Shown here: piece after piece, positions 1 through 43,361 of the stretch
How the letters are laid out: every line of letters begins with the position of its first letter
Numbering within the stretch: the stretch's first letter is position 1
NCBI GenBank assembly: GCA_017499595.2
Contig: CM039001.1
Location: forward strand, 930,001-994,000
Source: Psilocybe cubensis
Taxonomy: Eukaryota
DNA: 64,000 nucleotides
Direction: 5' to 3'
Made by a program: the position numbers and the translations under genes
The notes under the pieces: generated by a model
Database searches by the model: none
The model's input: only the letters and a program-made list of their open reading frames with translations
What the model was told of the DNA's origin: nothing

Positions 1-280
1 CACCTGCCTTCCTGCAAGTTACTCACCCTCCTCTATCATAAACCCTCATCTGTCACTGCAGCAGGTTTTGAAGTTCATGCGCAAGATATTTCGCTTTACG
101 AGACATTGGTTGAGGGAGTAGGGAGCATCAAAAAAGCGATGAAAATGTTTGCAAAGCGAAACCTAGATAGTAGTACATAGCTTTTTTTGCATCGCATACT
201 CATTTTATGGTTTTGTATTGTACTAGGCAGGTTTTTTTTTATTACAGTGATTCTTAACATTGTTCTGAAGCGTCCCATTT

Positions 281-492
281 GCGACTGAACTCAGCTGAAC
301 GCGCGCAGCGACGAAAAAATCGATTTTTAGGCATGTCCGGACACAAATGGGGCCTCCCGAGGGTTGTTCCCGATTTCCGGACAAATTTTTGAAAAAATTG
401 GTAGGTCGTTCTATATCCGGACAGAAATTTTGAAAATCGCGACGGACAAAAAACCCAGAAATCGACCTTTTTCGGGAACGTCCTCTGGGCCT
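281..492. mobile_element. Probable right end (subterminal repeats and TIR) of a DNA transposon extending beyond the window start
   Basis: Repeated (C)CGGACA and AAATCG motifs at 318-465. The segment ends ...TTCGGGAACGTCCTCTGGGCCT (492), whose reverse complement AGGCCCAGAGGACGTTCCCG resembles the AGGCCCCGGGAAGCTCCCC TIR of the 49866 MITE. The left end and TSD are not visible. Confidence 0.4.
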
Positions 493-3400
493 ATTGCCAG
501 GGGTCCTGGTGACTCGCTAATCGACCGGTGGTTGTAAGCCCTGGCATTAAGACCCGTATGAAAGGATGTTCAAGGCTGTATGTAGCCTCATGGGCCTTGA
601 GCCTTCCGTGCCTGTATGCAAGTTTCAGTGGACAGATAACGCCAAAAAGTGCCCCAAGACGATACAGAAGAAAATATACAGGATAATAAGGTTCAATAAG
701 AGGGGCGGGGAGGGGGCCGAAGCTGCGGCGAGCCCTCTAAGCACCGACCGAAGTTCATTGCAAAACGTTCAAGGTCATCCAGGTCACCAGTTCGAATGTT
801 CTCGATTCTTGAGCATGAGTCAGCACAAGTTAATTGACGCACGGACAGTCGGAGCTGGGGGGCTGTAGTTTCAAGTATAGCAGATAAACAAGCTCATTGA
901 ACTCGGAGCATGTACAAAGCAAAGAAAGCCTATTTGTATTATATTACTTACAGAGTGTTATCAAAGAAGGAAGTCAGTATTCCGAGTGGTTGATGAAAGG
1001 TGTTTAAACTGTATAGCAATTGACTAAAATCATACGGGCCATGCCATGCGCGTAACCAAGTTTTTCTATCCCACAAATCTCCACGTTATATCCCGACCGG
1101 TAAGTAGACACGCTCGTGACGGCATGTCGCGTCAAAGGGCGAACAGAGCCGCCCCTTGCCTCAATTATGGGCTCAAGAGTTGCCTAAGTCCGTCATGATG
1201 CGCCTATATGGGCGTCACCCCATAGTGTACATAACCAGGCCAGTATTTTAGTTTGCCGGTATCGAGGAATATCGAACAGAGTATCGGCAAATTCAACATA
1301 ATTCCATAAAGATAGTCCTGCAATTGAGATCATCATGTTTCTCAATGATTTGCGTTGTTAAGCGTGATGCGAGGGCGAAAAAGTTGGTAGGGTCGCAGTT
1401 TTGTTGATTGGACTACGTTATCTTATTGTTATCTAGAAATATTGAAGTGGCCATGTCGTCCGCGTTCTGAATTTTGCACAAGTTGATCAAGTATCATTCT
1501 TGAGCAGGAAAGTTCCTGTGGCGGTCAATCACTGGACACTCAACAAAGTGTCCACTTCGATGGCGGCATCGAGAGAGGGTTCTAGCGTATTATTGGCCAA
1601 TCTCCCGTTATATGGTCTGATAATGTGTCGCCATATCTGTGTCATGCGAGTTGGGCGGTTGCGAATAGTAAAGTTTTGGACCGATAAATAGATTGCGAGT
1701 CATCTACAAGTAGTACCAGCCTTGACGGTTCCGCTTGAAAGGGTTAGTCGCAACGGAAATACGTCATACCGACAGCATCTGACTGTGCTTGCAGTCGTTC
1801 TGGATATCAGATGTCTCGACTACTGCGCCTACAACTCTCGGAAGGATTCGGTCCCAAGAACGCTGTAAACAAGTATCTCAGGATCAGCCGTCATCCTCGA
1901 ACACAGGGTAACGGATGGATGAATGAATGATCACATAGCATTTCTCCTGTGTTCCCTAGAGACTTGTGTCTTCCCGAGGCTATGACCTTCAGAATTTATG
2001 ATCCGATAAGATAAAATGGGGTACGATAATGAATTCTATATTCTTTTAACCATAGCAAAGATAATCATTGCTGTATCGAAGGCTTTCATTTGGTGGCTCA
2101 ATGCAGTGCGCGTCTGAGCGACACTCAAAATTCATTACCAAGTCCAGCGTCTAATTCTCATCTCGGGCATATGCTTTCCCAAGGTGTTATGGTAGTCATA
2201 GTGTATATGAAAGGCTAGTCAACAAGCATAGTTACACCTATACTTTGACATTGGTTAGAAAACTCACTGACAGGGATACCGAATTAACAAGACTCACCCC
2301 CGAAAAGGCCACCCACGCAGAATCCCAAATAACCAGTGGCGCACCGTACGTGCACGCATGCCGAGAAAAAACCAGCGCGGGGTAGACGACCCACAAGGCT
2401 AAACCCCAACACAATCCCAAAGAAGAAAATGGCAAACCTCGAAATGTGCGACAGAATGGAATCACTTTGAAAAAATCAGCGTTAAATCCGTGAAAAGAAT
2501 GGGAGAAAAACCAGAATGTGAGAAGAGAGCAAATAGACATATACATGGAGTTTGCGATAAGATTGATGGTATGAGGCTCGGATGAGAGAAAAAAAAGGTC
2601 AACAACTCAAGCTTTCTCGTCCGGGAAAAATACGATCCGGTTTCCAGCTGATGATGGATTCGCAAGGGGTGCGCTACCAGATGCTGCGCTACCCCAAAAG
2701 TCTCGTCCAAAAATAATGTCAATGTTTGATTCCGTCCCAATGAATTCGGAAAATCTCGTTCAGGTTCGTATGGCTAGCTCTAAGGGTGGGACTCGTGGAC
2801 CTGACGCAGATTTACATACTTACGCGCAGATAAGATATATTGTTTTGAAACGTGTTGTCGAGTTGATGATGTATCATGGTCTGGGTTCTGCATCTAAATC
2901 AAAAAAAAAGTGCTCAGCTTTGCGTTGGGGTCCAATATAAAATCAGGTTTGAAAGCACTGCTCAATGCTTCTTAATGCCGAAGCACATCACAATCGACTC
3001 TGATGATGAGAGAGAAAAATAATGGAGCGTAGACCCCATGATGATGGATGCTCATTAGGTTAAGGCGATCCATGGTTGGTTTTATCGTTAGCTCCGAAGA
3101 GAGGCAAACTTTGCCTTGAAACTCCATCCTTATCACTTGCTTTACAATAGCCTCGCGGCCATGGAGGACATGTTGCTCCTCTGCGAGAAGCGAATGGCAG
3201 TAAAGAGCGCAACGATTAATTCTAGTTGGAACTAGAAACAGTCGCAATGAGTCGATATCGCTGTCAATTAATAGACGTTCTTTAGAGAACTTATTATCTA
3301 TTTCGACCGATAAAAGTGGCTTAGCAGAAAAGGAATAAGAGAACACGACTCAACAGCTTTGATTTTCCATGTTCGGAGTAGTGATGACAATTTCATGATG

Positions 3401-4697
3401 TATATTGCATAGTCTTCCATAATTGAAGAAGAATCTGTTGGTCGTGCACAAAATGTAAAAGGCTGTACCTGTATACGACGATTGGCTCCAAGAGCGACGC
3501 AGGAACAAAACGATTGAGCCAACTGGGTGCGAAAATCGTTCAGACCGAAGCCAACAGAAGACTGAAATAATTAAGATAAGACATGGTGGAGACCACAAGG
3601 AGACATTCGTATGTGTTTCAGCGTTCCAACGCTAAAAGTATCTTATCCACGAAGAAGGTGATCTCATCCCCTCCTTACCCTCTGGCTGCCCCGTACGACT
3701 GTTTATAGAGTGGTGCATCAATTAGCGTGAGCGTGAGGAATGAGTATGCAGAAAATAGACAAGGACAAGCCAAAACGAGAAGGACTGAGATTGACGCACC
3801 AAGAGGCTTGACCCAAGATCTTAAGAGGCATTTCTGGCAAGTCATTGTCGGTGACGTGATTGAAGTGTGTGAGAACCGGCAAGGGCGTCTATTTTTGCTC
3901 TAAATTCTTGGTTCCTGTGTGCGGGAAGGGCCATGGGAGACTTGAAGACGAGAATACCAGAAAGAAAAAATGGCGCAGGAAAATGTCGAAACGCGACGGG
4001 CATTGGGATAATATAAAATTGGCCGAACTGCCACCAGCTCATTGAGTTGGAAAGAATGTCGGAGTGACATGGAGTAAAATACTCGGATTCGCCAGGCTTC
4101 AAGTTCAAACGCATGGACAAAGAGTACAAGCACAAGGAAAGCCAGAATTAACGATGAATGAATGACAAATGGATAGGTGCCACAGTTGCTTTAAGGCTGT
4201 AGCTGCATTGGCGAAACGCAGAGCGAGCGCTAAATAGAGGTAGCTGAGAAAGAGATGCGAGTATCTTTTGAAAGAAGGATTAGAATTGTTTCAGGGATGT
4301 GGCTTGGTGTATTCAGATAGGACGCAGATAGACTAAGAGCGCCCAGGGAGGGATAGATGGAAGGAGAGTGGCATGGACAGTGGCAGCGACGGGGGCACAG
4401 CCAGAGGCAGCTGGGGTGTTACGGAGGAGCCGCGGTGATTGGTGGACCCAGAAGAACGGGACTGTTTGGGGATGTTTGGGACGGTCGCTGAGGGGAAGAG
4501 GGTGGCTGGGGGCCTGGAGAGTGGCAGAGAGTCGGGGGCCGGGAGAACCCCATATGGAAGGCAGATGGGATCTGATCGAGTGGTGGAGATTTGAGAGGAC
4601 TTCCTTATTAGGAGAGGGAAACCCTGGCGGTTCACATCCTCAGCCATTGAAAACGACAAACGGAAATTGCAGACAGGAAGCACTCCCTTGGCTCACC

Positions 4698-6334
4698 ATG
4701 GACTCTCTCTCCTTCGACGGCTACACAACCTACTCTGACGCCTCCACTCCCCGCACTCCCTCTCCCACCGACATGCACTTTGCCCCTGATTTCAAGCACG
4801 ACATAGACCACCCCGTCCAGAACATCTTCGCACCCACTGACGATGATAATGCAGGCGCTGTTGTTGTCCCACCATCCTCTGGCCCCTATTGGTCTCAGAA
4901 CTCCTCTACAAACACACACCCGTATGCCTTTAACAACACCAGCAACAACAGCTCCCGTGGCTCTCTGCTCCAGGAGCTCTACGAGTCCGACATCCCTGAG
5001 CAGTCCCTGTCTCCCAATTTCAGCCACCAGTCCGACAACTGGTCCCAGCAGCAGCAACAGCAGCAACAACAAAGGCCTTCAGAGTTTTCGATGATGCGTC
5101 GTGCCACTTTTCCCTATGTCCGACGCGACCACGAAGACGCGATGCCGATGCAGTACGTCCAGCAGCAGCAGCAGCAGATGCAGATGATGCACTTGCAGCA
5201 AATGCAGCACGGAAATGGTATGCAATATTCGCGCGGAGAGCATCTTTACAATGAACCCCACCACATGGACTCGGCCCACGATTTCATCCCATCCATGTCC
5301 AATTCTCCCCACTCCTCATACCGCGACTTTGACGATGGCGCAAACATCAAGCTCGAAGAGGGTGCGCCCCTTATGGTCCCCTCCCAGACCTCTTTCTACC
5401 GTCCCAATTCTTCTGGCGGTGTTTGTGGCTCCATGTCGCTGTCCTATCTTTCTCCCCATACAGGTCTTCCCGTCCAACACACTGACGATGCCGCTTCAAA
5501 AGAAACCCAGTATCTCCGTCGTCGATGCTTCAACTGCCACACAACCGAGCCCCCTTCATGGCGAAGGAGTACCCTTAACCCGGGCAAGATTGTATGCAAC
5601 AAGTGTGGTCTCTACGAGCGAACCCATCTGCGACCTAGACCTCTCCGTTTCGACGAGCTCCGAGCCGGTAACAAGGCACGCAAGCAAAGCAAAGCCACCA
5701 CTGGACCTAATCCAAGTGTCAGCCCAAAGCAGTCCAAGATGGTGAAGAAGGAACCCCGCGAGTATGGCACCGGTGCTCTTCTGAGGCGCAGTTCTGTATC
5801 CTCGTCAAGTTCTGTTCATTCTGGCAGCGGCGCAAGCGACTGGGATGATAATGGTGCGTTTTCGCGACATTGAATGCGTGGCGAACCGTGTTCTGATCTT
5901 GGGTTTCCTTCATAGTGTCCATTTACTCTTCTGGGTCAGCGCCCCCGACATCTTTCAACTCTCCTATCCAGCAAAGCTACCCATTGTCACGAAGCGACTC
6001 ACAGTCGCCTCCCCGCGACGGTGGAATCCGCCTCCCCAACAACCCTCTCTCTGACATCGCGTCGATGAACGTGTCTCATGGCCCACAAAGCCAGCTCCCA
6101 ACCCCCCGAAAATCACATACCTCACCTGGAGCATACTTTGCACCATCGCCGGCTCTCTCGCAAACCCAGGCACTGCCCGGAAGTCGAAGCGGCAGCGTGC
6201 ACGGCAGTCCTGCTGTTGGCCACTCACAGCTGCAGCTGCAAACACAACCTGACTTCTTTGGACCATCGGAGAACGCGTCGGCTGTGTCGAGTCCGGGACC
6301 AGTTGCCGCTGCAGTTCCTGCTCTATCGTCATGA
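4698..6334 (+). CDS. GATA-type zinc-finger transcription factor with polyQ tracts
   Basis: Finger CFNCHTTEPPSWRRSTLNPGKIVCNKCGLY (C-x2-C-x19-C-x2-C) followed by a basic tail. ATG in CACCATGG context at 4698. One intron, 5854-5915 (GTGCGT...CATAG), joins to the 5915..6334 frame. CAG/CAA runs near 5047 and 5160. Confidence 0.9.
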
Positions 6335-9300
6335 GTCACTAGAGGCGGAGGCGGTGATGGTTGACTGAGAAGAAGAGCGACGGGTGATCAGTGTCTTGCA
6401 TTTTGGGCATTCATCACGCATTAGGTCAGCGATGAAGCTCGTCCATCCTCTGCCACCGTCAAGTTGGTCGTCGTCGTCTTATTTATTACTACACTTGCCC
6501 CTGCCCTCCTCAAAAATCTGTCGATGACTCTTCACCATCGCCGGGGCCGCCACCTTTTTTATCTATCTATTTATTCGCGTCAATACCCAAACCCTTGTAC
6601 ACAAGCACTGAACACGATTTTGTATCATCCATCTTCCTGTTTGTTGTCTTTTTCTTGTCCTTTCAACGACCCTGGCAGCCAGACTGTATTCCGAATTGAA
6701 CTGTATTTATTCGGTCCATCTTACTCCAGCCTCGACTATCTTGCGACGGACTGTTCTTTCTTTCGCCTTTGTCTTTTTCTGGCTGTCATTTTTTGCTTTC
6801 ATCTCCTCTTTCGATGCGCATTTGGGCCCGCATTCCTCTGTTGTACTATTAAAACAAAAATACCACATAGATACCTGCCGTCATCTCCTAGTCAGTAGTA
6901 CTACCCCTTCATTTATGTACAAGCTTAAGCAATCCGGCATACATATATACCTACACCCCATGCAAACATGCGATTCCCTTGCCCATTCACTTTCGTTCTT
7001 ATCTATTCACTATTTCTATTCGCTTTACACATCTTGCAATTCAACGGATCATATTCTCCTCCTGTGCTAAGTACTACATAGCCAACAACTATCGCCATAC
7101 TTGGGGCTAGAATCGCCCACCACTGCAAGCTGTCACAGCCTCGGCTGGGTGTATGTTGCCCGCCGCACCATCCATATAGTTCCACCACGTATGAAAAAAG
7201 CGAATGGGCCGGTAGTATGTTTTTTGCCTTTTGCTCCGCTGTCTACTTTCTTTTAATTAGTCATGGCCGCTATAAGTACCCACATGGTCGAAATTGAATA
7301 GAGTAGGGGGCCTCGACAGCATCCTGTGGAGAGAAATTTTAACTTGGTCCCTCATTCTTTACTTCCAAAGATACATTTCCACCGAAGATTGCCCCAAACG
7401 CTTGTGTGTGTGTGTATCCGTGCGTGTGCAAAACGTCGTCAGCATTTACTTAAGCCTAAAAAAGAGGCCACCTTCTCGTCCCAGAAGAATGTAAAAAAGC
7501 GCGATTCAAAATACAACTGTTCATTCAACCATCCATTCCAAAGCATTCGTTTGTTGAGTTGTATACTGTACCACCGAACCTTCGCCGACGTATTGTTCTA
7601 TTTTCATGTTCCTTCAGGGAGGGAAAGCACAGGGTTGCGGTCCCTTTCGACGGGTTTCCCTTGAACTTATTACGTATATTTCCTTATCTGCATTCTCCCC
7701 CTGTTCTACAGAAGAATACTTGCACGCAAGAAAACTGCCCCTTGACCCTTACTTAGCAGGCCGCGCTTAATCGCACAGTTGAAAAGGCGACTTTACTAAG
7801 CGGTACGCGTCAGGGTTTGTTTGAAACTGTGCCCTCCCTCCAAAGCAAGTGGGGAACATGAACGCACTACGCCATACACACACACCGCCAACTTCATGGA
7901 GTATCTTTTTACCACTGGAATGCACCGGGAAACGTGGAGCTCCACCGACCACACAACTATACACGTCTTCGTTCCATCCATTTCCGTACCTCGATAGCAT
8001 TCTCCCTTGACAAACAAACAGGCCCGACCAAGGTTATCTTGTCGAAGCCCGCATGCTTGTATGGCCGGTCCGGGATGCCGACCCAGAGTCTATTGACGCA
8101 TCCTGGCTCGCTAGCTAGGACGCCTGAAGGATTGTCAAAGAGCATTCAAGTGCTCCCCCAGACCAACATGAAAGCAACGCACCACTTCCCCAGGCCGAAT
8201 GAGAGATAAATATGGAAGAAAGAGAGAAAAAAATCAACGCTGTGACGCTCATCCATTACAATTACTAACGCGGTCTCCGAGCGGTTTCTTGGGCTTTTCT
8301 GGTATGCAGGCTCGACGCTGCAGATTAACCGCTGCTACGTAGACCACCCAGGCCCCATCCGTGAATGGAAACCATACTGGTGAGATCGAGAACGGATCGA
8401 AATGAGATTGACGGATCCAACTTGAATACTTTCTGGAAGGGGAAAGGAGGGGGGAAGCAGGCGCGAAGAGAGTGAAGCGGCAGCAAATTTTATCGATACG
8501 CGCACGCCATTTCGGTTGAGCGCATGCCGATGGTGATGCGTGCCCGGTGGCAGAATTGGTCCCGCCACCGCTTACTTTCCTCCACACCCCTCTTTTGTGC
8601 CATACAAATCTCACGAAGAACCAAAAAAGTAGACGCCCTCAAGACCGCCCACCGCCCACAGTCACTCCGGCGCGCCTGCAGTCGTCTTCTTACCCTTTCG
8701 CCGTCTTAAGTATGGATAATCTCCTACCGTCTTATGGGCCGTTCGGATCGCACGGCAATGACGAGCTCATTTATAATACCTTTATCTGTTCTCCCTTATG
8801 AAAACGCCTCTCACTTGGCAGCTTCGTCGGTGGGCTAAATGGATTGTAGGCTCCCCAATATGTAACACACAAACGAAAACACGCCATTTGGTCACTTGCG
8901 CCGAAAAATTCAGGTGAAATAGGCCTCGGCAACGCTCACACTCGTCCACACGGTGTAAAGAGCTTAAATTCAGACATGGACATGAGCATTTATATAAAAA
9001 GTTGACCAAAATAGAAATGCTCTAGCCTTTTCACTTTACATAAAGCCCATGGGGCAGGTAGTCCCTGAGAGCGTCGAATCCAGCTGATAATAGGCCCTGA
9101 ACTCATATGTAGCGCTAAGAGTACGACGGGACAACAGACTCCGCACGGGAAAGTTGGGTTAGGTTAGGTAGGTGTTGTCATACTGCTGACAAACTCATTA
9201 TCGCTCTAAACCACTCCTAATTTGGAAGCTTGAAGCCCCTGTCTGAAGAGTTTATACACATTATCTAGAGTCCACACTAGTCTAAGTGCAAAAGAGACAT

Positions 9301-12300
9301 TCGAGAAGGACTGGGAGGGAGCAAATTAAATCCATAATTTGTATTTACACTAGCTTGTGCCGATAAAAGCGCGTCCTGCTAATGGAACTTCCAAGCGATG
9401 AGAACAGAAATTAGAACGCGTTTATGTCATTTAGAATAACCACGAGAGGGTTGACGGTATACACGACAAACTCGTAATTTGGCGCGCGCGGCGCTGCCGC
9501 GTCAACGAGGCGCGTCGATGCATTGACCCCTATCTATATTCGCCCAGCACTTTTGCTTCCCGGACGCAGATAAGTTGCCCAAGTTACCTTATCTGCTCCT
9601 CAAAGACCTAGACTTAAAGTATACACTCACGTCACTGTAGACTTTGCCCATGAAACTCTGCAGATAAATTGGAAAGCAAGTGTTCACATGAGAAGTTCAG
9701 GCTATTTATATACACACTTCGTGAACCTAGTACGTAACTGGAATAGAGTCTGCGCCTGCGGCACGCGTGGAGAAACCTGACAAAAATTTTCCTGCTTCAG
9801 CACACGTACATGTGCGGAGCGAGGCTGAGAAATGTAAAACGAACAGATTGCAATGCAATGCGACATCCAGGGAAGTTCGTGATGACCAGGGGAACATTGC
9901 CTGTAAGCCTTCTTCACTTCTGCAGTGGAACTGCAAGTCCAGTGCACTGCACGCTGCAGTGTAAATCAAGCAACACGCCATAGAGATATGTTTGAAATCG
10001 AATGCACCTCAAAGTCGAGATTTAGTTTTCTTTCGGCAATGCAATACTATTATACCAAGTTCATTTCTACAATTTGGCGATCTTTTGTTTTAGATAATAA
10101 TTTCGTTGCCGAATGACAGGGTGAATAAAAAACTAACATGAACGTCAGAGGCTTTATCCAGCCGACGTTCACTTAACTTTATCACGGCGTACCTCTAATT
10201 CGATTGTGTAAGGTAAAGCACACCACGCTAGGCTCGGAATCCTTTAATTTACGTATTCGCAGTCACCCACCAGTGAGGCAATTGGCTATATTATTTATAA
10301 AGTCACAGTGGCGACGTCTAGTAGTTTGTGTAATCGCCGGGGCGGATCCGGATCCTATGCGCTCGGAACCTTCATATGCAGATCTTCATTGACAGTGGAC
10401 ACCCACAATTCGTGTTCCATGGATATTCGGACTTGATGATTGTTTGAAATTATCGTTCGCGATTCAAGGAAGTCATTGGTACTAAGATCGAATCCCATTT
10501 CCCGTGCTACTCACTCGATGCAAACCTGAATGTCATTGAACGCCACAGCTAGACATGACGCTCACACGCGTTCATCCGGAACCCGTTAAACCACGCTGAA
10601 TATCGGCGTCGCCAGTGCGAGACTTAGGACGCGAGTACATGAGAATTAGGTTCCTCGTCATTTTCAAAATACTACGGTGGCGTTGTGTTTGAAAAGACGT
10701 CCATGGGAGTATTCAATTCCGACTCGCGTTGCCACCATCCCCTCCGACTAACGTCCTTCATCCCAAGTGAGCAGTTAGCCTTTTTAAATGCTAGCCATTG
10801 AAGCACAATGCAGGTGGCGTGTAGGAATAAAAATATAGACCGACTTACTCGCGTCCGAAGCAATAACCAAGATCTACCACAGGGCCAAAGCCAACAGAGC
10901 CCTATTCAGGCAAATACTGTGGGTACAAAAGTACAAATATTGTGTACTGATCCCAGCCACAGGGGTTTTGACAGTCACATCGGCTTCTCTCCATGGAAGA
11001 TAGCATCTCAGGTTACGCCGGGCAGTTGGGAGTCGTTTTGTGGGTCTCTAAGAGAATGGAACTTGAAAAAAAAGAACTGACTAGCTCAATATACATAAGC
11101 ACCTTGTGTTCACCCAATTGAATCTCATGGCGTTTTTAAATTTGAAGTGTGTATTGTGGATAATATAACGACGAGACGAGTCTTCATAACCGTGTATCTC
11201 GGGGATCTATCAAGACGAGCCTTCGCCTTCTGAGATCTCAATACGACGCTCTCTTTCATAGTTCCTTTCTTCCCTCCTTGCTTCGGCAATATAAATAGAC
11301 AGTTGCTTTAAATCAATGACACCTTCCACGGTCGTTCGTTACGTGGATTGCGTTCTTTGCAAATATCTAGAAGCCAGATTCACCACGTACGGGGAGACGG
11401 CCTACTATCTAGCGGAAAACGAATTTGCGATTGTGAAGGCTTGACTCTTCCCTTTGAGATAGTTGTTTTCGCATGTTACTTTGAGCCACAACGCTGTAGT
11501 ACGCGTGGTGACATCCATTTACAAGGTGGACCTTTCACTGGGACGCTGTAAAATGACCAAGTTGTTTGCCTTTGATTGTTGTCAACATGCAAGAAATGGC
11601 GCACCTGCTAGTTCGTTGGCGTCTTAAAGGAATCAGACAGCGCACTTTTTTACTCTTCTATTGTCTTAGCCAGTGTCCATTCAGCAGGCTGTTTGATGGA
11701 CCAACAATCAGACGATTTCAGCGTGAAATACTTGACACGGGATCTTTCCTTGCGAGGTATTTCGCCGTCCTAGTCGAGTCCTCCCAAGCATACACACCGG
11801 CCTTTGGTAAGCACCATACATTTATCAGCGTTCCTTCTGAGTGCCAGACCCCCGGCGCGTCGGTTGCAACCTGCCTCTCTGTCGAATTAAATTGGTGTTT
11901 CAGTGTAGACATACTTCATGCAGCGAATTTTGAGAACGTCTGTCGAACCAACGTCCCATGTTGTCCAAACCTCTGCATTCGTGGGATGTGAGTATCTACT
12001 CGCGAGCGGGGTGCGCATGGTGGTGATGCCTTTGTCCACTTTACGGGTGCTGTTCTGCTGTTCCTGTCAAGTTGTAATACCAGTATTTCTTCGGTCACGG
12101 AATCATAAGTTCCGAATCCCGTTGGAACCCGTATTCCGGTCTTTATTTGACGTGCGATGTACTTCAAGTCAGACAAATCGACTAACTTGTGTTCCTAACG
12201 CCTTATGTCGTCCCAAGAAGTCATCACAGTATTTTGGCAGGTTTGACTCACGAATCAACTGGGTACGCTTGTGAGGTTATCAATAGCCATCCAACATTAC

Positions 12301-15300
12301 CAATTCGGAGTACTTGAGTCAATGATAGCACTGAAGCTGAGCGTTTGCTGAAGTATCCGGAACTGACAAAAATCACTGTCTGTATAGGGGAGAGTCTTCA
12401 AGGGTGTTCAAAAAACACTTCGTTGCATAACTAGAAGTATACCGCAGAAAAATGTCGCATGTACCAGATAGGCCTGTGCGCAAGTTGTACATTGTCTTCA
12501 AAGCTGTGAAGTGAGCGGATGGCAGATGCATTCAAAGTCCGCCGTATGTAATACGATTTTTTATATGGCAATAACCGGTAGAAAGCTGGCCTAGTAGTAG
12601 TACAGAAATGTCGTGCGAATTGTCTCGACTAGTAAGAAACTATCTAATGTAGGTGTCAGGGGGACCTTAATATATATATATGAATTTATCTCCTTTGGGA
12701 TTCCCAGGAATGCGGCCCGCGCTATCACCCATACGAGATTTTTGGAGTTCATTTTTGAATTCGAGAGGTGCTGGTGGAGTAGATGGTGTTAGGATTCAAA
12801 ATTTTGCACGAACATTAAAAAGGCATTCGATAAGTCTGAGAAATCTACAATACTTCTCCAAAAATAATTATGTAGTGCCGCCGCTGCGTAGAAAGATAGA
12901 CATTGCATTTCGTGAGATCAAATCACCCGAGGGAAAAATGAAAATGCAGTGGACATATTAGGCGCTCAAGCGCTCGTTGGCCAAGGGACAACTTACTCTG
13001 TGCCCACATTGCAACATATGTCATTAATAATTTAATAGAGTTGGTCAGAAATATCGTTCCAGAACAACGGGTTCCGAATCCAAGTCTTAATAATAGAATT
13101 CAGTGGCGTCCTTGCCACTGCCCGTATCTAGTCCGTATGTGAAGTCAGAACAACAATAGCGGAATATTGTATAGCTTTAATTAATTCAACGTCATTTGAA
13201 CCACAAAACATCCACATACGACGAATGTTTTGGGTCCGTGTCTTTTTCGTCTCTTTATTCCCAATTTTCACTAATCGTCTCGGATTATGGATAACGTATT
13301 CTGACTATGCCTCAAGGATATAGACTGAGTTTCGAACCGGATACCCCTTTTCCATCAAACTTATTTGCCTTTACTGGATGGACCCTCGATTTCCAGGCGC
13401 CTAATTATCGTCATATAAATTTCTTTGTGTATAAACATCCTAGCACCGTAGATTGACCATTACCAACTGTCCGCGAGATTTAACCTTCTGCCTGATGGTT
13501 AGAACTTACCCTCAACTGGCAAGGCGAATGCCAAAATATCCAAGTATGCACAACACGAAATGAATTCAAAACTTCTCCAATCGCAACGGGTATTTAGAAA
13601 TGGTTTTCGTCAAGTTATCATTCAGAGTACGAAACGCGCAGGTCAGGCGCTGCCAGTTTGTTATTCTTTTTTTAAACTCAAAATTGAAAACATGTAGCTG
13701 CGGATAGCTTTGAAATTAGGTGGATTCGGACCTTTAAGGTTGAAAAATTTTATAAACAAAGGCCCGGGATACACACGCACAGTATTTGAATATCGCGGAA
13801 GACCTGACCATCTCGCTTAATGTAGTCGCATATAGAAAGACTTGCATTTACAAAGTTAAGAGGAAGATCCCCATGTGGAGCCCAGAAATGTTCTGCGGGT
13901 GAATGCATTGCCCAGAATCTAAGTGAGGGATTTTCCCCATTCCCCGTCATGCTAGCAAGCAAGACAGAACGCTCGGAATAATTGAACGCGGCAGGTGTTT
14001 TTAGACCGCTACTCAGTGCCCTCGAAAAGCAAGTCACGGGTACATTAGAATACGTACATGAAGAGGTGAGAGCGATCGAAAACACAGAGGGGTAAACCTT
14101 CTTATCCAGTGAATGCTGAATGTTCTAATATTGGAACCCCGGCATACTCGGGGGAAGTGGCAAAGAGCTTGAAATATAGAAGCACTCAGCACAAGGTCTT
14201 TGACGTCTGGATATACTGCCACGACCACGTGGGTACCTAGGGGAATGCCGCGACAAGGCAAAACTAGGAAGAGTGTAGAACTATGGTATAGCTGCGTGGT
14301 CACAATGGTACTTGCAGCTTTCGTATCAGTATCGAAATGAAAAATACTCATTTTGACGCGCGCCGGGTAGCGTAGAAAGAGGGGGGGTTCGGGAACTCTG
14401 TGGCTCTGACCACTCATCACGGATGAACTTGGTATGTTATGCTAGTATGCCAGAAGCACTGCGTGAAGACATACAGAATGGGAGATTGAAATTTACTCCA
14501 TGTTAGTCAAGTTGGGTTCGTTTGTCTACTGCTTCCTGGACCCCTAAAGATAAAAATAAGCTACCCAAGATCTTCACCAAATCTCAACGATGCAGATAAC
14601 TTTGCGGAACGGACCATTTTAGACATACGTGGATGTACCGACACAGAATCGGAGGGCGTTGGAGCGCTAGGCAAACATGGATGGGATTTGGAGTGGCTTC
14701 CGGCGGTAAATGGAAGCCAAAGATTTCACTAAAGACCAAGGAACACCCAAAAATGAGTGTGCGCTAATACTGGCAGATGATAGCACAGTGTTCATTTTAA
14801 ACCGTGAGCAGTCATACCGCATATCCAATTGAATGTTGTCCTGATTTTCTGCCAGCGAATGCAATTACGACTAGAGAGTTTAGAGTGGGGAGCAGTACCG
14901 TAGTGGGTTTTTTGACGGATGTGCCGTGTTTTGCCGTGTGTATTTACTGCTCTGCACAATGCCACAAATTGAATTGTTGCCGTATCGTCGAATAACCGTA
15001 TTTTCTTCCGCAGTAGGCAAGTACTTTGCAATTGTAAGTGGATTGTGCCCGATAGCACGACCAAAAATAATTGTGAATGAGTTGACGGCGCAGTACTCTT
15101 GGTCCAAGTGGCCCAGAATTGGCTCACCGACCTACCCAAAATCGAACTTCGTACTCCCGTGGAAGATTTCGAAGACAGAACGCTGAATCGACGCTATGGG
15201 TGTTTCCGTCAGCGTCGGGCATTAGGTCCAGTCATAGATAGTGCGAAGCATGAATAACTTGAGGAACGCCCGTGCTAATTCTCGGCATGAGACGCAGCGG

Positions 15301-16580
15301 ATTTTCTGAGTTGGATTTCTCACTGTGCTGTGAAAGAAGCTATGGACCCGCGGCGTCATAGTTATCTAAAACTGCCCAGAAGGGCTTCGGGCGCAAGGCA
15401 CCGATTAAAGAAGTCCTTCTAAAGAGGTGAGATGTGGCCTGAACAGAAGCTCGGAGAGGGTTAGAATCAAAGTCAGAAGAGTTCAACCCGAGATCTTGCC
15501 TATTTTTGTGATCAATGTCGTGGGTCAGACGTGTCACTGTTACCGCCGATTTATTCATGACCCCTTGGCATTCTTATCCATTAGCTACAATAATTTCCCA
15601 TGACTCTGAAACTGGTACAACGATAATCACAGTACTATACGGTAAGCATTGTAATTCCTTCAGAAGGTGAAAAGTGTGATGCTGCATGCACTGACTACGG
15701 TACAGGTTGCTTTGGCGGTGCTACGCTTAGTGATTCGCCGTCTCGACAGCAACTCCGAAGGAAGGTAGTATGTAGAAAGGTAGTAGATCTAAGGTAGAGC
15801 AAATATCCACGGGGCATGTGCTTCAAATGCCCGATAAGCTGGTACGAGTGTTTTAAATTGGGATGCAATCGAAGAAGGATGGGATATCAGTATGACTCCA
15901 ATCTCGCAAATTGCAAAAGGGAGAAGTGGTCATGGATAAGGACGGCTTAACTTACAAGACGTGTATTACATTACTGTATGTAAAATGCTAGGAATAATGT
16001 AGCAATTAGAAAGTGGCGAAACTGTCATAATATCAGGGGGATGTTCAAATGCACCCATGAAACGCGACTATAATTATGCAGTGCGTAATTATCCTCTCAC
16101 CCCAGTCCAGTGCCTGTCGAGTACGGTGGAAAGGTTCTTTGGCATAGCCTTGGTGCGTCGGCCTTCTTTCCCGTATGAACGTTGTCTGTTACTGCTGCCA
16201 ATGATTATTCGGCAGGAATGACTCGAGATCCAGGTCCCGCAGGTGTCGCCCGGGATATTTGGACATCTCTATGCGATCATACCACGGGAGGTGATGTCTG
16301 ACAGCCAGAAGAATGACCCTGCCTTATTTGGCAAGAAAGGCCACGCGGTGCGCAAAGGCGGTTGCGCTACAATCTACTCTTGTGTCAACCCCTGCATGTC
16401 GTAGGTAAGAGAGAGAGAGATCCAAATGCGCGAAAACAATCACGCAATCGAAAAGGTTTTGAGGAGTCGGGAATTCTGCCGTTGGTGTGAAAATGCGACC
16501 GCTACGCAGAAACGCAGGCAATCCTGCACCACGTTCCTAGTCGAATTAGCACCTCGCTTTGGGGCCAAGCCGGATATGTG

Positions 16581-17641
16581 CTAAGTGGCGAGTTGGTCCG
16601 CCTTTAAGGGCCTGCCTCCTTGCTCGAGATCTGCGCCCTCTAAAGAGCGGGACGGGAGTTCCGTATGGCGATGCGCTTTGCCAGGGAAGAGCTTTGAAAT
16701 ATACGATAAGCCGGTTGCTGCAATTCTTGTGCCAATCCACTGTGCTAATGAAACTCCAGGCAATAAACCCATGACATCTTTAATGTCCCATATATCCCTA
16801 TGATGAGTGACGAGTCCCTGTTCATTGAAGGACAGCCGAGTGACTATCCTCAGTTTGAAATGCAGGGGAGAAGGGAATGCTAACGAGGTCCCAGGGATAG
16901 GTAAAGAGGGAGAGATAAAGGGTTGCGATAGTGAGGGTAAAACTGGAGACCCGTGTATATTTACGAGGGAGTCGGTCGAGTTATTGACAGTGTGCGATAT
17001 CGACCCTTCACGGTGGATCCCCGGAAGGACCAAAATATTAAGGGTGTGTTCAACAATTGCTTTACGGTGGCCATCTGCAGCGTTATCAAATCACTGTGCA
17101 CAACTTTTTATGCATTTGCATAACGCACCAAATGATTCGTTCTCGCAGATATCCACGACGTCAGTCCAAACCCGCAAAGCCTCAAATAGAAGGTCATTGG
17201 ACGTTGGAACCCGCAAACGAAAGAGTGTGCAAATCACGGCCAAGGGTCTCGGCACATCTACGGAGCTCAACTGGCGCGATAGCCTATGTATATCGCCTAT
17301 AACAGAGCGGGAAGTGGCAGTAATGAATGGATTTTCATAACTAGGGATCGGGTTGGATTAGACTTCGTGTGCCTAGGTGGGCGAGCAACACTAAGGACTT
17401 ACACTAAAGAATTAGAAGATTAGAATGCATTGAGCGATCAGAGAACATTATACTCACGAGCGTTAGCTTCATAGAAATTGTCCACTGTATCTGCGGACAC
17501 AGGGCTTTCTCCGTAAACTGAGTAACAGACATCGAGAGCTGTCGCGCGTGTCGACGCCGTCGAGATTTCGGGGGAGCGTGTATTCAAAGGATGCACGGAA
17601 AAGGGTATAACGTTTGTGATAGCACTGTCGTTAGACGCCAT
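16581..17641 (-). CDS. Conserved hypothetical protein, probable NTF2/SnoaL-like fold
   Basis: Spliced model: exon 17641-17458, 1-nt exon 17403, exon 17340-17129, exon 17074-16581. It gives ...FYEANALYENPF...ESFDGHRKAIVEH...RLSFNEQGLVTHHRDIWD. The YENP and LxFNxxGxVTHHRDxW pattern resembles SnoaL/NTF2-like proteins (inference). Confidence 0.75.
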
Positions 17642-18045
17642 TGAGGAGTATAGGATGTATAATGTAGGATGGATAGATGAGTGACAATATAGTGGTGCTC
17701 TGCTCAGTGCTCGCCACTCCGCTCAACTACGGTTGTGGTACCACGTGAGCCTACCTCCCCATTAGGGTGATGCCATCAAGCGAGCATAACCCCGTCTTTT
17801 CTGCTCGTAATAAACCTTGAATGATGTATGAATGATACAGCATTCTCGAGCAAAAGAATTTAATCAAAGGCGCAGTCGAAATTCAAAGCCCTGGAAGATT
17901 GGTTTCTGTACAACACATTGAGCGGCGACTCGCAAATGGCTATGACTGTCATCGTCACTTGCGTCACAGATTGATAGTCACACAAATTTCTCATTTTGAA
18001 ATTAAATATCTCGCTCTGGTACACATATAGCTTGCAGTCTTTGGA

Positions 18046-21000
18046 ATGGCCAAAGGATCGCAGCTATCACAGCTAAAAGCTGCTCTCAATAAAGCAGGGC
18101 TAACGGGACCTCCGAATAGCAAAAAAAGAAAGCGCGGTCAACCTCTAGAGAAAGACAAGGAGAAAAAAGCTGCAAAGCTCGAAGAGATCCACCAGCGTCT
18201 CAATCCTTTTGATGTCAAGGTCACAAAGTTGAAACACGATGTTGGAGGGAGAAGACTGAAGGGAATCACCGGAAGGCCTGCAAAAAGCAAGCAGGCTGAC
18301 CTTGATCAGGTACGCCAAGCGGTCGATTCCTTCTCTGGCCACCTTTACAATCAAATATCCTCAGCGCAAGAAAGTGTTGTTGAAGGAATATGAAGAAAAA
18401 GACAGAGCTGGTGGCATTGTCGATCGACGTTTCGGTGAAAATGATCCTACTATGAGCTTGGAAGAACGTATGCTGGAACGCTTCACCAAGGAGAGACAAC
18501 GGGCTTCGAAGGGAATGGCGTTCAATCTGGAGGACGAGGATGACCTCACACACTATGGTCAAAGTTTATCAAAAATGGACGACTTTGACGACGTTGGACT
18601 GGAAGAAGATAGCGACGAAGAAGATAAGCATGGTAAGGATGGAGTCTATTCCGACTAGTGCAATATAGTTATGTTGGTCTAGGTCAAATTGCCCGAGATG
18701 TTGTCAGTAGGACACATTTTGGCGGCTTTGGAGACGAACCGGAAGAAGAGGAAGAAGGGGTGCGTATAACCAATAGCTCAGTTAAGCCATTATTGACCTA
18801 TTCAACTTAGCCTGCGAGAAAGAAAACGAAGGCTGAGGTCATGGCCGAAGTAATGGCCAAAAGTAAAGAGCATAAAGTACTTTTCATCCCTCTCTTACTT
18901 ACATCAGGTAACTTACGTTTCATTGCACTAGATGCGCCGACAAATGGAACGCGACCAAGACGATAACATTCGTCACGAACTCGATAATCAATTTGCGGAT
19001 TTACGAGAACTAATTTTCGCGCCAGACCCTTCGTCTAGTGGTAGCAATATGATACCGCTTGGTGTACGAGAGGGGGGGCCATATCCCAAACCACCCGTTG
19101 ATGCCGAAACTGTAGTGACCAAACTGATTCCTACGGGCGAAGGCGATGATTATGACCAACACGTCCGAGAGTTGGCGTTTGACAAACGCGCCAAACCCAA
19201 AGATCGAACAAAGACAGAAGAGGAATTGGCATTGGAGGCAAAAGAAGCCTTGGAAAAGGCAGAAAGAAGGCGCCGAAGGCGTATGTTGGGTCTGGACGAA
19301 AGCGAAGACGAAGATGAAGGAGGAAAGGGAAAAGCGAAGCGGAAAAGAGGAGGAGACGACTTAGACGATGATTTCGACGATCCTAATGAAGACCTAAGTT
19401 TATTGGGACCAGGCCTCGGAGGTGAGGTTGCTGCGGATGAAGACGACGAAGAGGAAAGTGATGAGGATGAAGAAGAAGGTAGCGACGAAGGAGAGGAAGA
19501 AGAAGGATCGGATGAGGATGGTAATTCCGAGCTTGAAGGCTCAGATGAATCAGAAGGAGAGGAGGGAGATCATGAACAACTTGTTGCGCCTCGCAGAACA
19601 GCAAAAACAAAATCCAAGGGCAAAAAGAAGGCGAAGCAAGAACTACCTTTCACTTTTCCATGTCCCAGCAGTCACGAGGAATTCCTTGAAATCATTGAAG
19701 ACATTGACGACGACGATGTACCCGTAGTGGTGCAAAGAATACGTGCCTTGTATCATACAAGTCTAGCGGCTGATAATAAACTTAAGCTCCAGGTAGGCAA
19801 TTCCAAGTTTTCTAAAATACATTTCACATACTTTATCTGGTAACAGACATTCGCAACAATACTCATCGATCACGTCCTATATATTGCCTCTCCTCCAAAT
19901 CCCCGCTATTCCTTGATAACAGCTTTATTCCCTCACATCCTTGCCATAACGAAAGCATATCCTATTCCAATTGCCCGTCATTTCAACAGCAAACTAAATC
20001 TAATGCATAAAAACCTGAAACGAGGGCTTTCCCGTGGCCCTCTCGACCCTGATGCCAAAACATGGCCTGGAATTCCAGAGTTGTCTCTCCTACGATTAAT
20101 TGGACTTATCTGGCCGACCAGTGATCTCAACCACGCGGTTGTTTCCCCTACGCGACTTCTTTTAGGTGCATACCTTGGCTTGGGACGGGTGAGGACATTG
20201 CGCGATATTGCAAGTGGTTTGTTTTTGTCCACTCTGTTCCTGCAATACGAATCACTCTCGAAGCGACTTGTACCAGAAGTAATCAATTTCCTCCTAAATA
20301 CCGTTCTTTTCCTTGCACCGCATCCGTTTGAGCGCGTCACCGATCTTCCTGGCTCGTTCCCTTCACCCGACTTCCGATCAAAATTATGCCAAAAACTCGC
20401 CATGGATGCTAAAGTTAAAAAATCGCTCGTAGCCCGAAAGGCAAACTTGACGACACTTATGGAATCTGATGATTCAGACGAGCAGGCAAAGGCGGACTTG
20501 CTCTCGCTTTCCTTCGGATTACTTGGGGAATTTGCCGGTTTGTATAAAGGCCTTGATGGTTTCATTGAATTATATGAGCCTGTGTTAGCTGTCCTCGAAA
20601 ATCTTGATAGCAAACATCTTTTCGACGGCCACAAGGTAGAAATTTTACACATCTTCTTTTTCTTTACTTAATTTATTCTGCTACCCTAGACACAACTTGG
20701 GAAACTCGTTGACTCCCTTCAACGACTGCTCAAATTTTCACATCAAGCCAGAAAGCCGCTGTGTCTACAAGCACATAGGCCTATCCCTATCCCAACCTAC
20801 ATTCCCAAGTTTGAAACTACTACGTCGAACTACCTGCGCAGGCAAGATCCTGATCATGAAAAGAACCAGGCCTCCAAATTGCGCAACCAGTACAAACAGG
20901 AGAGGAAAGGCGCCATCAGAGAGCTGAGAAAAGACGCCAGATTCCTTGCAGGTGTGGAACAGAAGAAGCAGATTGAAAAGGATCGCGCATATAATGAACG

Positions 21001-41318: not shown

Positions 41319-42035
41319 CCTTGTAGCATGTTCGCGTAGGCGATATAACCAGTTGCTGAGCCAGGTGTCTTATAGTAGCCTGCCAGTAGTTGATCAGTTT
41401 AGAGAATACACCACACGACCACACCGCAACCTTTTGGTTTGGAGATAAAGCAAAGCCGTTGTCCAAACGAACGGATATGTCTGCGACAACACCCTTTAGT
41501 TCGGCAATTACTGACTCATACTCGTGTAGCTGGGTGGCTTGAAGCTGGCTCCGAGACTCGATTGCCAGTATGTGTGCTAAAATGAGCATCCAGCACATCA
41601 TATTGGGTTGACTGAGGGAAGCTGAGGGCGAGGAGGTTCCAATCTAAGGCTAGTCAGATTCTACACAAGCTCACAAAGATAAAGACACACCTGATAAAGC
41701 CCGAGAAGGTGGCTTCTGCTTTGTTCTGAAATGCCAACCCTTTGAATGAGGGTGTCGATGAACAAAACAACCCAGGGCTCAAGTTGTTCACCAGGAGACG
41801 CCATTGAAATGCACGCTTGTACGGGATTTTGGTGGGTGCTGCACGGACACAGTAAGGAGCGGTTGTCGCAACTGCATCCTACCTTTATACCCCGCGAAAA
41901 AGCAGTGCTGCATTTTTGGATTCAACAAACCCGTCGCGTCGCGTCCTGTGCAAAGGCATGCAAATAATCGCCCTCGTGAAAACATAAAAATGAAATTCAA
42001 AGCCAAGAAGAATACGCACGGTACCCCCCGCCACC

Positions 42036-42876
42036 ATGGCCAATCACCCCAGTGAGCCCACGGACCCAATCGCTCTGCGCACTCCCGTTCGTAAAAGGCG
42101 AGCTCATCCGTCAGAATTGGGGTATCTGGAGCCCAGAGCAAAAAAAAGTCAGTAAACCAATCCTTTATCCATACTGAACTAATCTGACCTTGTGAACAGC
42201 TCTGACATTGCCAACCGGCGGCGACGGCTCAAACAGGTCTCCAGGCTCCATGGGCAGTGGTCAAAATGCGCACATTACCGCCGACGCTGACCCGGCGCCG
42301 CCCTTGTCTCCAACCGCATCTGAAACCATCGACCTCCGGGAGCGGCTCAGCGTCTCCGTCTCTCCTCGAAATCGCCTTTCAAAGTCCAGGAGGGCCGTTT
42401 TTGACAAGCTGGCCGAGGTTGTATCTTGGGTGGAGGAGCGAGACAGAGAGAAGAGGAAAGCACTGAAGGAGCGGGCACAGAGGAGTGCGGATGATCGCTT
42501 CGCAGCAATCGTTGCCAGAAAGGAGGCCCTAGAGCATGCGAGGGCTACGGCAGAGCAGTGCAAAATAGCGAGAGCAGGAGAGGATGCGGCAGAACAGAAG
42601 CTGCGGGATTCAGAAAGGGAGGTTCATCAGCTCAAATGGGATATGCAGGAATTCACCAAGAAGTATGAGGCCTTGGAAAAGGAGTTGGAGCAATGTGAGG
42701 CTGCAAAGGACAGGGAGGTCAATTTGAGCCGGGCAATGGAGATTCGGGGCGACTTCTTATTCAAGATGCTGGCTGACGAGCGCCGGTGGATTGACAGCCT
42801 GAAAGCAGTCTTGATAGAGCAAGGCATTGAATTGCCAGCTTATCCTGAGGGAAGAAGCAGCTTTACGGACATGTAG
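42036..42876 (+). CDS. Transposon cargo gene: coiled-coil protein of unknown function
   Basis: CCACCATGG start at 42036. Intron ~42148-42199 (GTCAGT...AACAG) joins in frame to the 42208..42876 ORF, which has a long E/K/R/A-rich heptad region. Divergent from the 41804 gene. Confidence 0.65.
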
Positions 42877-43361
42877 GGCGTTGGATTTACGTACCAGAGT
42901 CGTTGAAATGTTAGAAATGTCCTTTTTTTGCTTCAAACGTTGGCGAAAGCTTAAGGGTTATACACATGGAGGCAGGTGAGACGAAGTTCCTGTTCAAGTT
43001 CGAGAAACAGGTGAACCGACGCGCGTGTCACGTGACATCGTGACACGCTCGTTGATTGATTATTGGCACCTTGAAGGGCGCGTTTTGCGGCTTTTGTTGT
43101 TTACTCCCACCACAACCCCACCCCACCAAGACCCCCAATGATCTGCAGAGACTCCCCACACACCGGTGAGTCTCCATGCAGATCAGCATGTTTAGCGGCC
43201 CACGTTGTCTCTGAATACCCTCTCACTGTCTGAAAAGTCAGGGCTCACCCCTGGGCCGGGAGTTTCAGACAGCGAGAGGGCACAGACGGCGTGTGCCGCC
43301 GTATTATGCACACATTTTGACTACCCCGTTGACCCCGTATCGCACAGACACCAACGCCACG

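Follow-up and report, generated by a model that had tools for sequence, protein, structure and literature searches.

A one-base internal exon between two introns in an uncharacterised gene of Psilocybe cubensis

Results

A minus-strand gene with a candidate one-base exon

The window analysed here is a 64,000-nt stretch of the Psilocybe cubensis genome (assembly GCA_017499595.2, contig CM039001.1, positions 930,001 to 994,000 of the forward strand), and all coordinates below are positions within it unless a locus is named. A protein-coding gene on the minus strand of the window starts with an ATG at 17641-17639. The coding part of its exon 1 (17458..17641; translation MASNDS...FYEAN) ends with GAA GCT AAC GCT C, and the final C is the first base of a Leu codon. 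Intron 1 (17404..17457; 54 nt, phase 1) runs from GTGAGT to TTTAG and is separated by a single base, T 17403, from intron 2 (17341..17402; 62 nt, phase 2), which runs from GTAAGT to CCCTAG. As a one-base exon, this T would supply the second base of CTT (Leu). Exon 3 (17129..17340; 212 nt), which starts from 17340 with T TAT GAA AAT CCA, provides the third Leu base T, then YENPFITATSRSVIGDIHRL...ENESF and the first base of an Asp codon. Intron 3 (17075..17128; 54 nt, phase 1, GTGCGT...CTGCAG) leads into the coding part of exon 4 (16581..17074), which ends at the stop codon TAG (16583-16581). With T 17403 included, the coding sequence amounts to 184+1+212+494 = 891 nt, that is, 296 codons and a stop.

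Both introns around T 17403 are complete. Each has a GT donor, an AG acceptor, a normal size and a branch-like motif: intron 1 has two CTAAT motifs, 16 and 8 nt before the AG, and intron 2 has a single CTAAT, 17 nt before the AG. An initial annotation, made from the sequence alone, had placed a single-nucleotide exon here. Re-reading of the minus strand upheld its coordinates and lengths (54 nt, T 17403, 62 nt) as well as its description of each intron as having its own donor, branch site and acceptor at a typical size (GTGAGT..TAG and GTAAGT..TAG). Its claim that the T is needed to keep the reading frame held as well: without T 17403, translation runs into LVMKIHSLLPLPALL and meets a stop 15 codons on (ORF 17297..17398). 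An in-frame intron of 161 nt (17457-17297), weighed below, had been overlooked. On inspection by eye, no resemblance between introns 1 and 2 was noticed.

The AGNGTRAGT motif occurs 8 times in the window versus 3.4 times expected. By itself it is not diagnostic, because ordinary exon ends have this look, and the support for a one-base exon comes from transcript contigs and conservation, not from the motif. The nine letters found at the one-base exon, AGTGTAAGT, are also present at 57504-57512 (minus strand) and 57543-57551 (plus strand), on opposite strands and 31 nt apart; this pair may be an inverted repeat, or it may mark two features that converge or overlap and have their ordinary donors there.

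A Pfam search with the three exon translations returned no match. Full-length homologues matched the NTF2_SigF NTF2-like family (PF24840) at 13.2-21.7 bits, below the gathering cut-off of 25, which we take only as a hint that the encoded protein may be NTF2-like. The 296-residue protein is uncharacterised. Upstream lies a divergent Nop14-like gene (plus strand, from ~18040), which shares an intergenic region of ~300-400 nt with the one-base-exon gene; its first two exon-like ORFs (18031-18658, plus strand) match Pfam Nop14 (PF04147) with E values of 2.8e-11 and 7.6e-41. A plus-strand ORF antisense to exon 3 (16807-17340) gave no Pfam match. Elsewhere, the G+C content rises to 0.558 at 42001-44000 and to 0.535 at 4001-6000, compared with ~0.44 in the rest of the window.

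Transcript-like contigs keep a single base at the junction

Five sequencing runs, all of one organism, carry the stretch, and four of them (X1-X4) were compared over 16400-17800. As X1 and X2 stem from two samples of the same study, they count as one independent observation. Their contigs comprised ~19.1 Mb and ~17.9 Mb, and those of X3 and X4 ~44.6 Mb and ~46 Mb. None of the runs is on record as RNA, and the RNA label given to X1 and X2 is a guess. Each of these two runs has one contig over the region, 1650 nt in X1 and 1725 nt in X2, and both contigs are 100% identical to the window. They join 17340 to 17458, skipping 117 letters whose ends read CT..AC on the plus strand, and exactly one letter stands between the two sides of the joint, an A on the plus strand and hence a T on the minus strand. 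The same contigs join 17074 to 17129, with the 54 letters of intron 3 (again CT..AC on the plus strand) skipped. In the DNA-like runs X3 and X4, the whole stretch is unspliced with no joint, and within the 117 nt they differ from the window at 17345 only. We consider cDNA to be by far the likeliest nature of the X1 and X2 contigs, because three GT-AG introns are cleanly gone, because of the contig sizes, and because these runs hold fewer Mb than X3 and X4.

At its upstream end, the X1 contig covers 17458-17738 with 0 differing letters, so the transcript reaches to at least 17738. At the other end, the 1650-nt contig extends ~480 nt beyond 16400, about 660 nt past the stop codon (15919-16580, minus strand, approximate coordinates); either the 3' UTR is long or the contig continues into the transcript that comes next.

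The mRNA keeps one base between two excised introns, as the middle base of the Leu codon C-T-T. The mature mRNA predicted by the initial annotation is the one found in X1 and X2: exon 1 to 17458, one T, and exon 3 from 17340, with no other differences. A reading with one intron of 116 nt, displaced by a base at one border or the other, was rejected. Such an intron would leave a G on the minus strand, not the T of the contigs, and the T therefore comes from inside the 117 nt. A stwintron of the [D1,2] kind, or one with a split acceptor, was also rejected, in agreement with the initial annotation. The DNA has an uninterrupted donor 2 (GTAAGT) and acceptor 1 (TTTAG), the contigs retain the T, and the flanks in the window present neither the G then GT at the donor that [D1,2] would have, nor a split acceptor.

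Homologous proteins and public gene models

Forty-two proteins matched the exon 3 query, 25 of which are named Agaricales models. The exon 4 query returned 148 cluster representatives at E<=0.001, and the named members of this family include Suillus, Somion, Grifola, Coniferiporia, Sphaerobolus, Serendipita and Calocera. Six unnamed transcript-like homologues among the exon 3 matches have exactly one residue between ..NA and YENP, as the initial annotation had expected of homologues: I in P0004, P0020, P0021 and P0040, V in P0022, and T in P0025.

The 25 named models present a mixed picture at the same junction. One residue is found in 2 of them, two residues in 6 (SD, CQ, GI, SI, SD and SI) and longer insertions in 7; another 5 skip part of exon 3, including Psilocybe cyanescens P0023 with the 161-nt solution, and 5 lack exon 1. 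From these comparisons, 23 of the 25 named public models are wrong or incomplete at the junction. The two-residue errors (SD, SI, GI, CQ, GH and GA) can be read as the outcome of starting the predicted intron at positions +5/+6 of donor 1, where a second GT stands. One check of this donor use was made with L045, a related locus described below, which reads G/GTCAGT...AG/T (slashes mark splice borders); here GGT CA+T gives the annotated G-H of Suillus bovinus P0063. The remark in the initial annotation that one-nucleotide exons are missed by predictors agrees with the single residue seen in only 2 of the 25 models. As to their rarity, three published sources, one of them in an agaric, make such exons less unheard of than the remark implied.

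Related loci in metagenome contigs

An alignment-based scan of metagenome contigs yielded 47 related loci, in which the DNA was parsed between the end of exon 1 and TAY GAR AAY. Two introns around one base (N/GT..AG/N/GT..AG/N) are present in 38 of the 47 loci, representing 19 of 25 clusters at 90% nucleotide identity. The check proposed in the initial annotation, for AG-N-GT at the same codon in orthologues, comes out positive in these 38. The arrangement is missing in the other 9 loci. Six (L027-L030, L035 and L046) have the phase-1 intron only, followed by two codon bases; one (L017) is cDNA-like, with intron 1 absent and intron 2 retained; and two have no intron at this place, being either spliced or intronless (L002, which retains intron 3, and L021, which is truncated 7 nt upstream). 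A phase-1 intron at the place of intron 1 is found in 44 of the 47 loci, which is every locus that still has an intron there.

Among the 38 two-intron loci, the first intron measures 47-73 nt and the second 47-77 nt. All 38 have GT as donor 2, and 37 have it as donor 1. In L025 (L025:2893-3000), donor 1 reads GCGCGT and AG/T/GTAAGT is present nonetheless; a GC-AG intron is possible, as is an exon 1 end elsewhere (GTGCAG, 6 nt upstream). L045, a two-intron locus, is at the protein level 91% identical to Suillus bovinus P0063 (Boletales), and L012 is 82% identical to Phlegmacium.

Of the 38 loci, 32 have T as the middle base and 6 have C (L008, L031-L034 and L038). The codons formed at the junction are ATT, ATA, GTT, GTA and TTA, or ACA and ACT, in agreement with the I, V and T of the transcript-like homologues and with the L of CTT in the window; L008 (A/../C/../T, ACT) matches the Thr of homologue P0025. 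The only base of the exon behaves as an ordinary second codon position, with T for Ile, Val or Leu and C for Thr. In one clade of close loci (L031-L043 without L035), 7 loci have T as the exon base and 5 have C, which makes the residue Ile or Thr; the exon's single base has flipped recently here.

The cDNA-like locus L017 lacks intron 3 as well. Its T is already joined to exon 1, and the 54-nt intron 2 is retained and brings an in-frame stop (L017:314-370). The closest named homologue is Amanita thiersii P0034, which has an unexplained 20-residue read-through at the junction. L017 may be a half-spliced intermediate of the one-base-exon arrangement, and it hints that intron 1 goes first, which would fit co-transcriptional splicing. 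We set it aside as proof of a splicing order, since a genome without intron 1 would look identical, and keep it as a hint.

Alternative readings of the junction

AG-T-GT is present twice at the junction, the second time 13 nt downstream (17392-17388), and a script counted 2 candidate sites in the window. The retained T could be T 17390, with an intron 1 of 67 nt that ends in ccttAG (17392-17391) and an intron 2 of 49 nt that starts from GTTGCT (17389). The resulting mRNA is identical, and transcript contigs cannot distinguish T 17390 from T 17403. The donor GTTGCT, however, is without the G at +5 that donor 2 has in 36 of the 38 related loci, and GTAAGT, as at 17402, is the commonest donor 2 among them (13 of 38). 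Moreover, 17405-17404 is the AG that a first-AG rule would pick downstream of the branch-like CTAAT, and the layout is conserved, with a single AG-N-GT site that leaves both introns at least 40 nt long in 33 of the 38 loci. We regard T 17390 as highly improbable. A different solution is a single intron of 161 nt (17457-17297, acceptor TTATAG), which would leave Arg instead of L-YENPFITATSRSVIG, the form annotated for Psilocybe cyanescens. This intron keeps the frame (C+GC), and 5 of the 25 named models skip part of exon 3 likewise (P0013, P0019, P0023, P0024 and P0037), but the two cDNA-like contigs have their joint at 17340 and include 17340-17297, and across 36 aligned homologues YENP is invariant and TATSR nearly so. 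As an account of the junction, the 161-nt intron is barely credible; it could be a minor isoform, because contigs drop rare variants.

A further reading concerns the nature of the joined contigs themselves. With an RNA label that is only a guess, the joined contigs of X1 and X2 may come from DNA, either as a processed retrocopy or from an allele without introns, and would then be silent on splicing. Yet no joined form is seen in the DNA-like X3 and X4 of the same organism, and all three introns are excised exactly at their GT..AG borders. A retrocopy would, besides, itself stem from an mRNA carrying the T, and the transcript-like homologues, as independent evidence, have a single residue here. 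To the DNA reading we give almost no credence. In our main reading, which we hold to be very probable, T 17403 is a one-base internal exon in a gene of four exons and may be used constitutively, and its flanking introns of 54 and 62 nt are removed separately. The form with T 17403 was seen in one assembled contig per run, in X1 and X2 alike; contigs drop rare variants, so that minor isoforms could escape.

Phylogenetic distribution of the two introns

A tree of 73 rows, from which the poorly covered L047 and L026 had been left out, was built by a quick search, with SH-aLRT as its only measure of support. The window is sister to Psilocybe cyanescens. The two-intron form is found in the Suillus clade, in an unnamed clade of 12 rows (L031-L043 without L035) and throughout the Agaricales-like part of the tree, and the single-intron loci L027-L030 group with Serendipita (SH-aLRT 99). 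Two other single-intron loci, L035 and L046, are nested among two-intron loci on long branches, and their join was flagged as a long-branch meeting. Given its presence in Agaricales-like loci, Boletales-like (Suillus) loci and a third, unnamed clade, the one-base-exon arrangement appears to be old. Tentatively, the simplest history starts from the phase-1 intron alone, adds intron 2 one base further down, and has a few lineages lose intron 2 later. The loci compared include none from Calocera, at the root of the tree, so that the direction, gain before loss, is tentative too.

Discussion

The gene described here is a further case of the published one-base-exon kind; it differs in its T/C base, its spread over at least two orders and its uncharacterised family. 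The literature found, as far as the cited accounts go, comprises two one-base-exon genes described individually and a count of 13 such exons in one agaric. To these, the present gene adds a case with transcript support in the organism itself, orthologous loci that span at least two orders, and a base that is neither G nor fixed.

The closest parallel is provided by the CYP621A P450 genes of Fusarium, whose one-base exon was called the first in a fungal gene by its authors (Nelson and Syed 2026, PMC12940212). As presented in that account, the two cases have much in common: both are fungal nuclear genes in which an exon end in phase 1 and a start in phase 2 cannot be joined without one base, both have AG-N-GT between two short introns with the middle codon base lying in a conserved motif, and in both, public transcript data confirm the splice and orthologues keep the arrangement (PMC12940212). 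They differ in the base itself, which is reported as G in 24 of 24 Fusarium genes (AGGGT), where it fits both splice-site consensuses, and is T or C here, where it helps neither (PMC12940212). They differ also in distribution: the Fusarium exon is described from a P450 in one ascomycete genus, and ours belongs to an uncharacterised basidiomycete protein of Agaricales-like and Boletales-like lineages (PMC12940212).

In Coprinopsis cinerea, an agaric like the organism studied here, a long-read annotation counted 13 exons of 1 nt in 13 genes (Cell Genomics 2025, PMC12230235). There too, omitting 1-nt exons breaks gene models; the main text of that study names none of the genes and offers no comparative analysis of them (PMC12230235). 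The one-base exon of Arabidopsis APC11, tested by reporter constructs (Guo and Liu 2015, PMC4674806), is likewise a single nucleotide between two GT-AG introns that had been mis-annotated before, and is described as constitutive. APC11 is a plant gene, and the abstract of the study mentions no deep conservation across orders (PMC4674806).

As for mechanism, two ordinary U2-type GT-AG introns are removed separately, and the single base stays in the mRNA. Acceptor 1 and donor 2 stand one base apart, and the factors that bind them should exclude each other. Simultaneous recognition of both introns should be impossible because of this spacing; introns 1 and 2 would then be removed one after the other, and either order would give the same mRNA. 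In the recursive splicing of Drosophila and vertebrates, very long introns are removed through ratchet points, AG/GT, which amount to a zero-length exon and leave nothing in the mRNA. The present arrangement resembles ratchet points in its juxtaposed 3' and 5' splice sites and in the probable stepwise removal of adjacent segments, and departs from them in that one base is left and the introns are of only ~50-60 nt. As outlined in the cited reports, a stwintron is an external intron whose donor, branch site or acceptor is split by an internal intron; the external intron takes form only once the internal one has been excised, and nothing of the two stays in the mRNA (PMC12403724, PMC8469720). 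Stwintrons and the present introns share the direct contact of two U2 introns and their probably consecutive removal; unlike in a stwintron, donor 2 and acceptor 1 are intact here and one base is kept in the mRNA (PMC12403724, PMC8469720).

A fuller history is possible, to which we give somewhat less than even odds. Intron 2 would have been gained one base downstream of an older phase-1 intron, after the branching of the Serendipita-like lineage and before the split of Agaricales and Boletales, and would have persisted except where it was lost again, at least once. The base would drift between T and C like other second codon positions, so that the spliceosome would need nothing from the exon, and removal of the introns would proceed 5' to 3'.

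For annotation, the signature of two-residue errors in public gene models could serve to find further hidden one-base exons. An origin of the exon in Fusarium CYP621A by a lost base and rescue as a cryptic exon has been proposed (PMC12940212). If the joint history of gain and drift is true, the exon described here would have an origin unlike the one proposed for Fusarium, and no other one-base exon described so far would be as old or as widely conserved.
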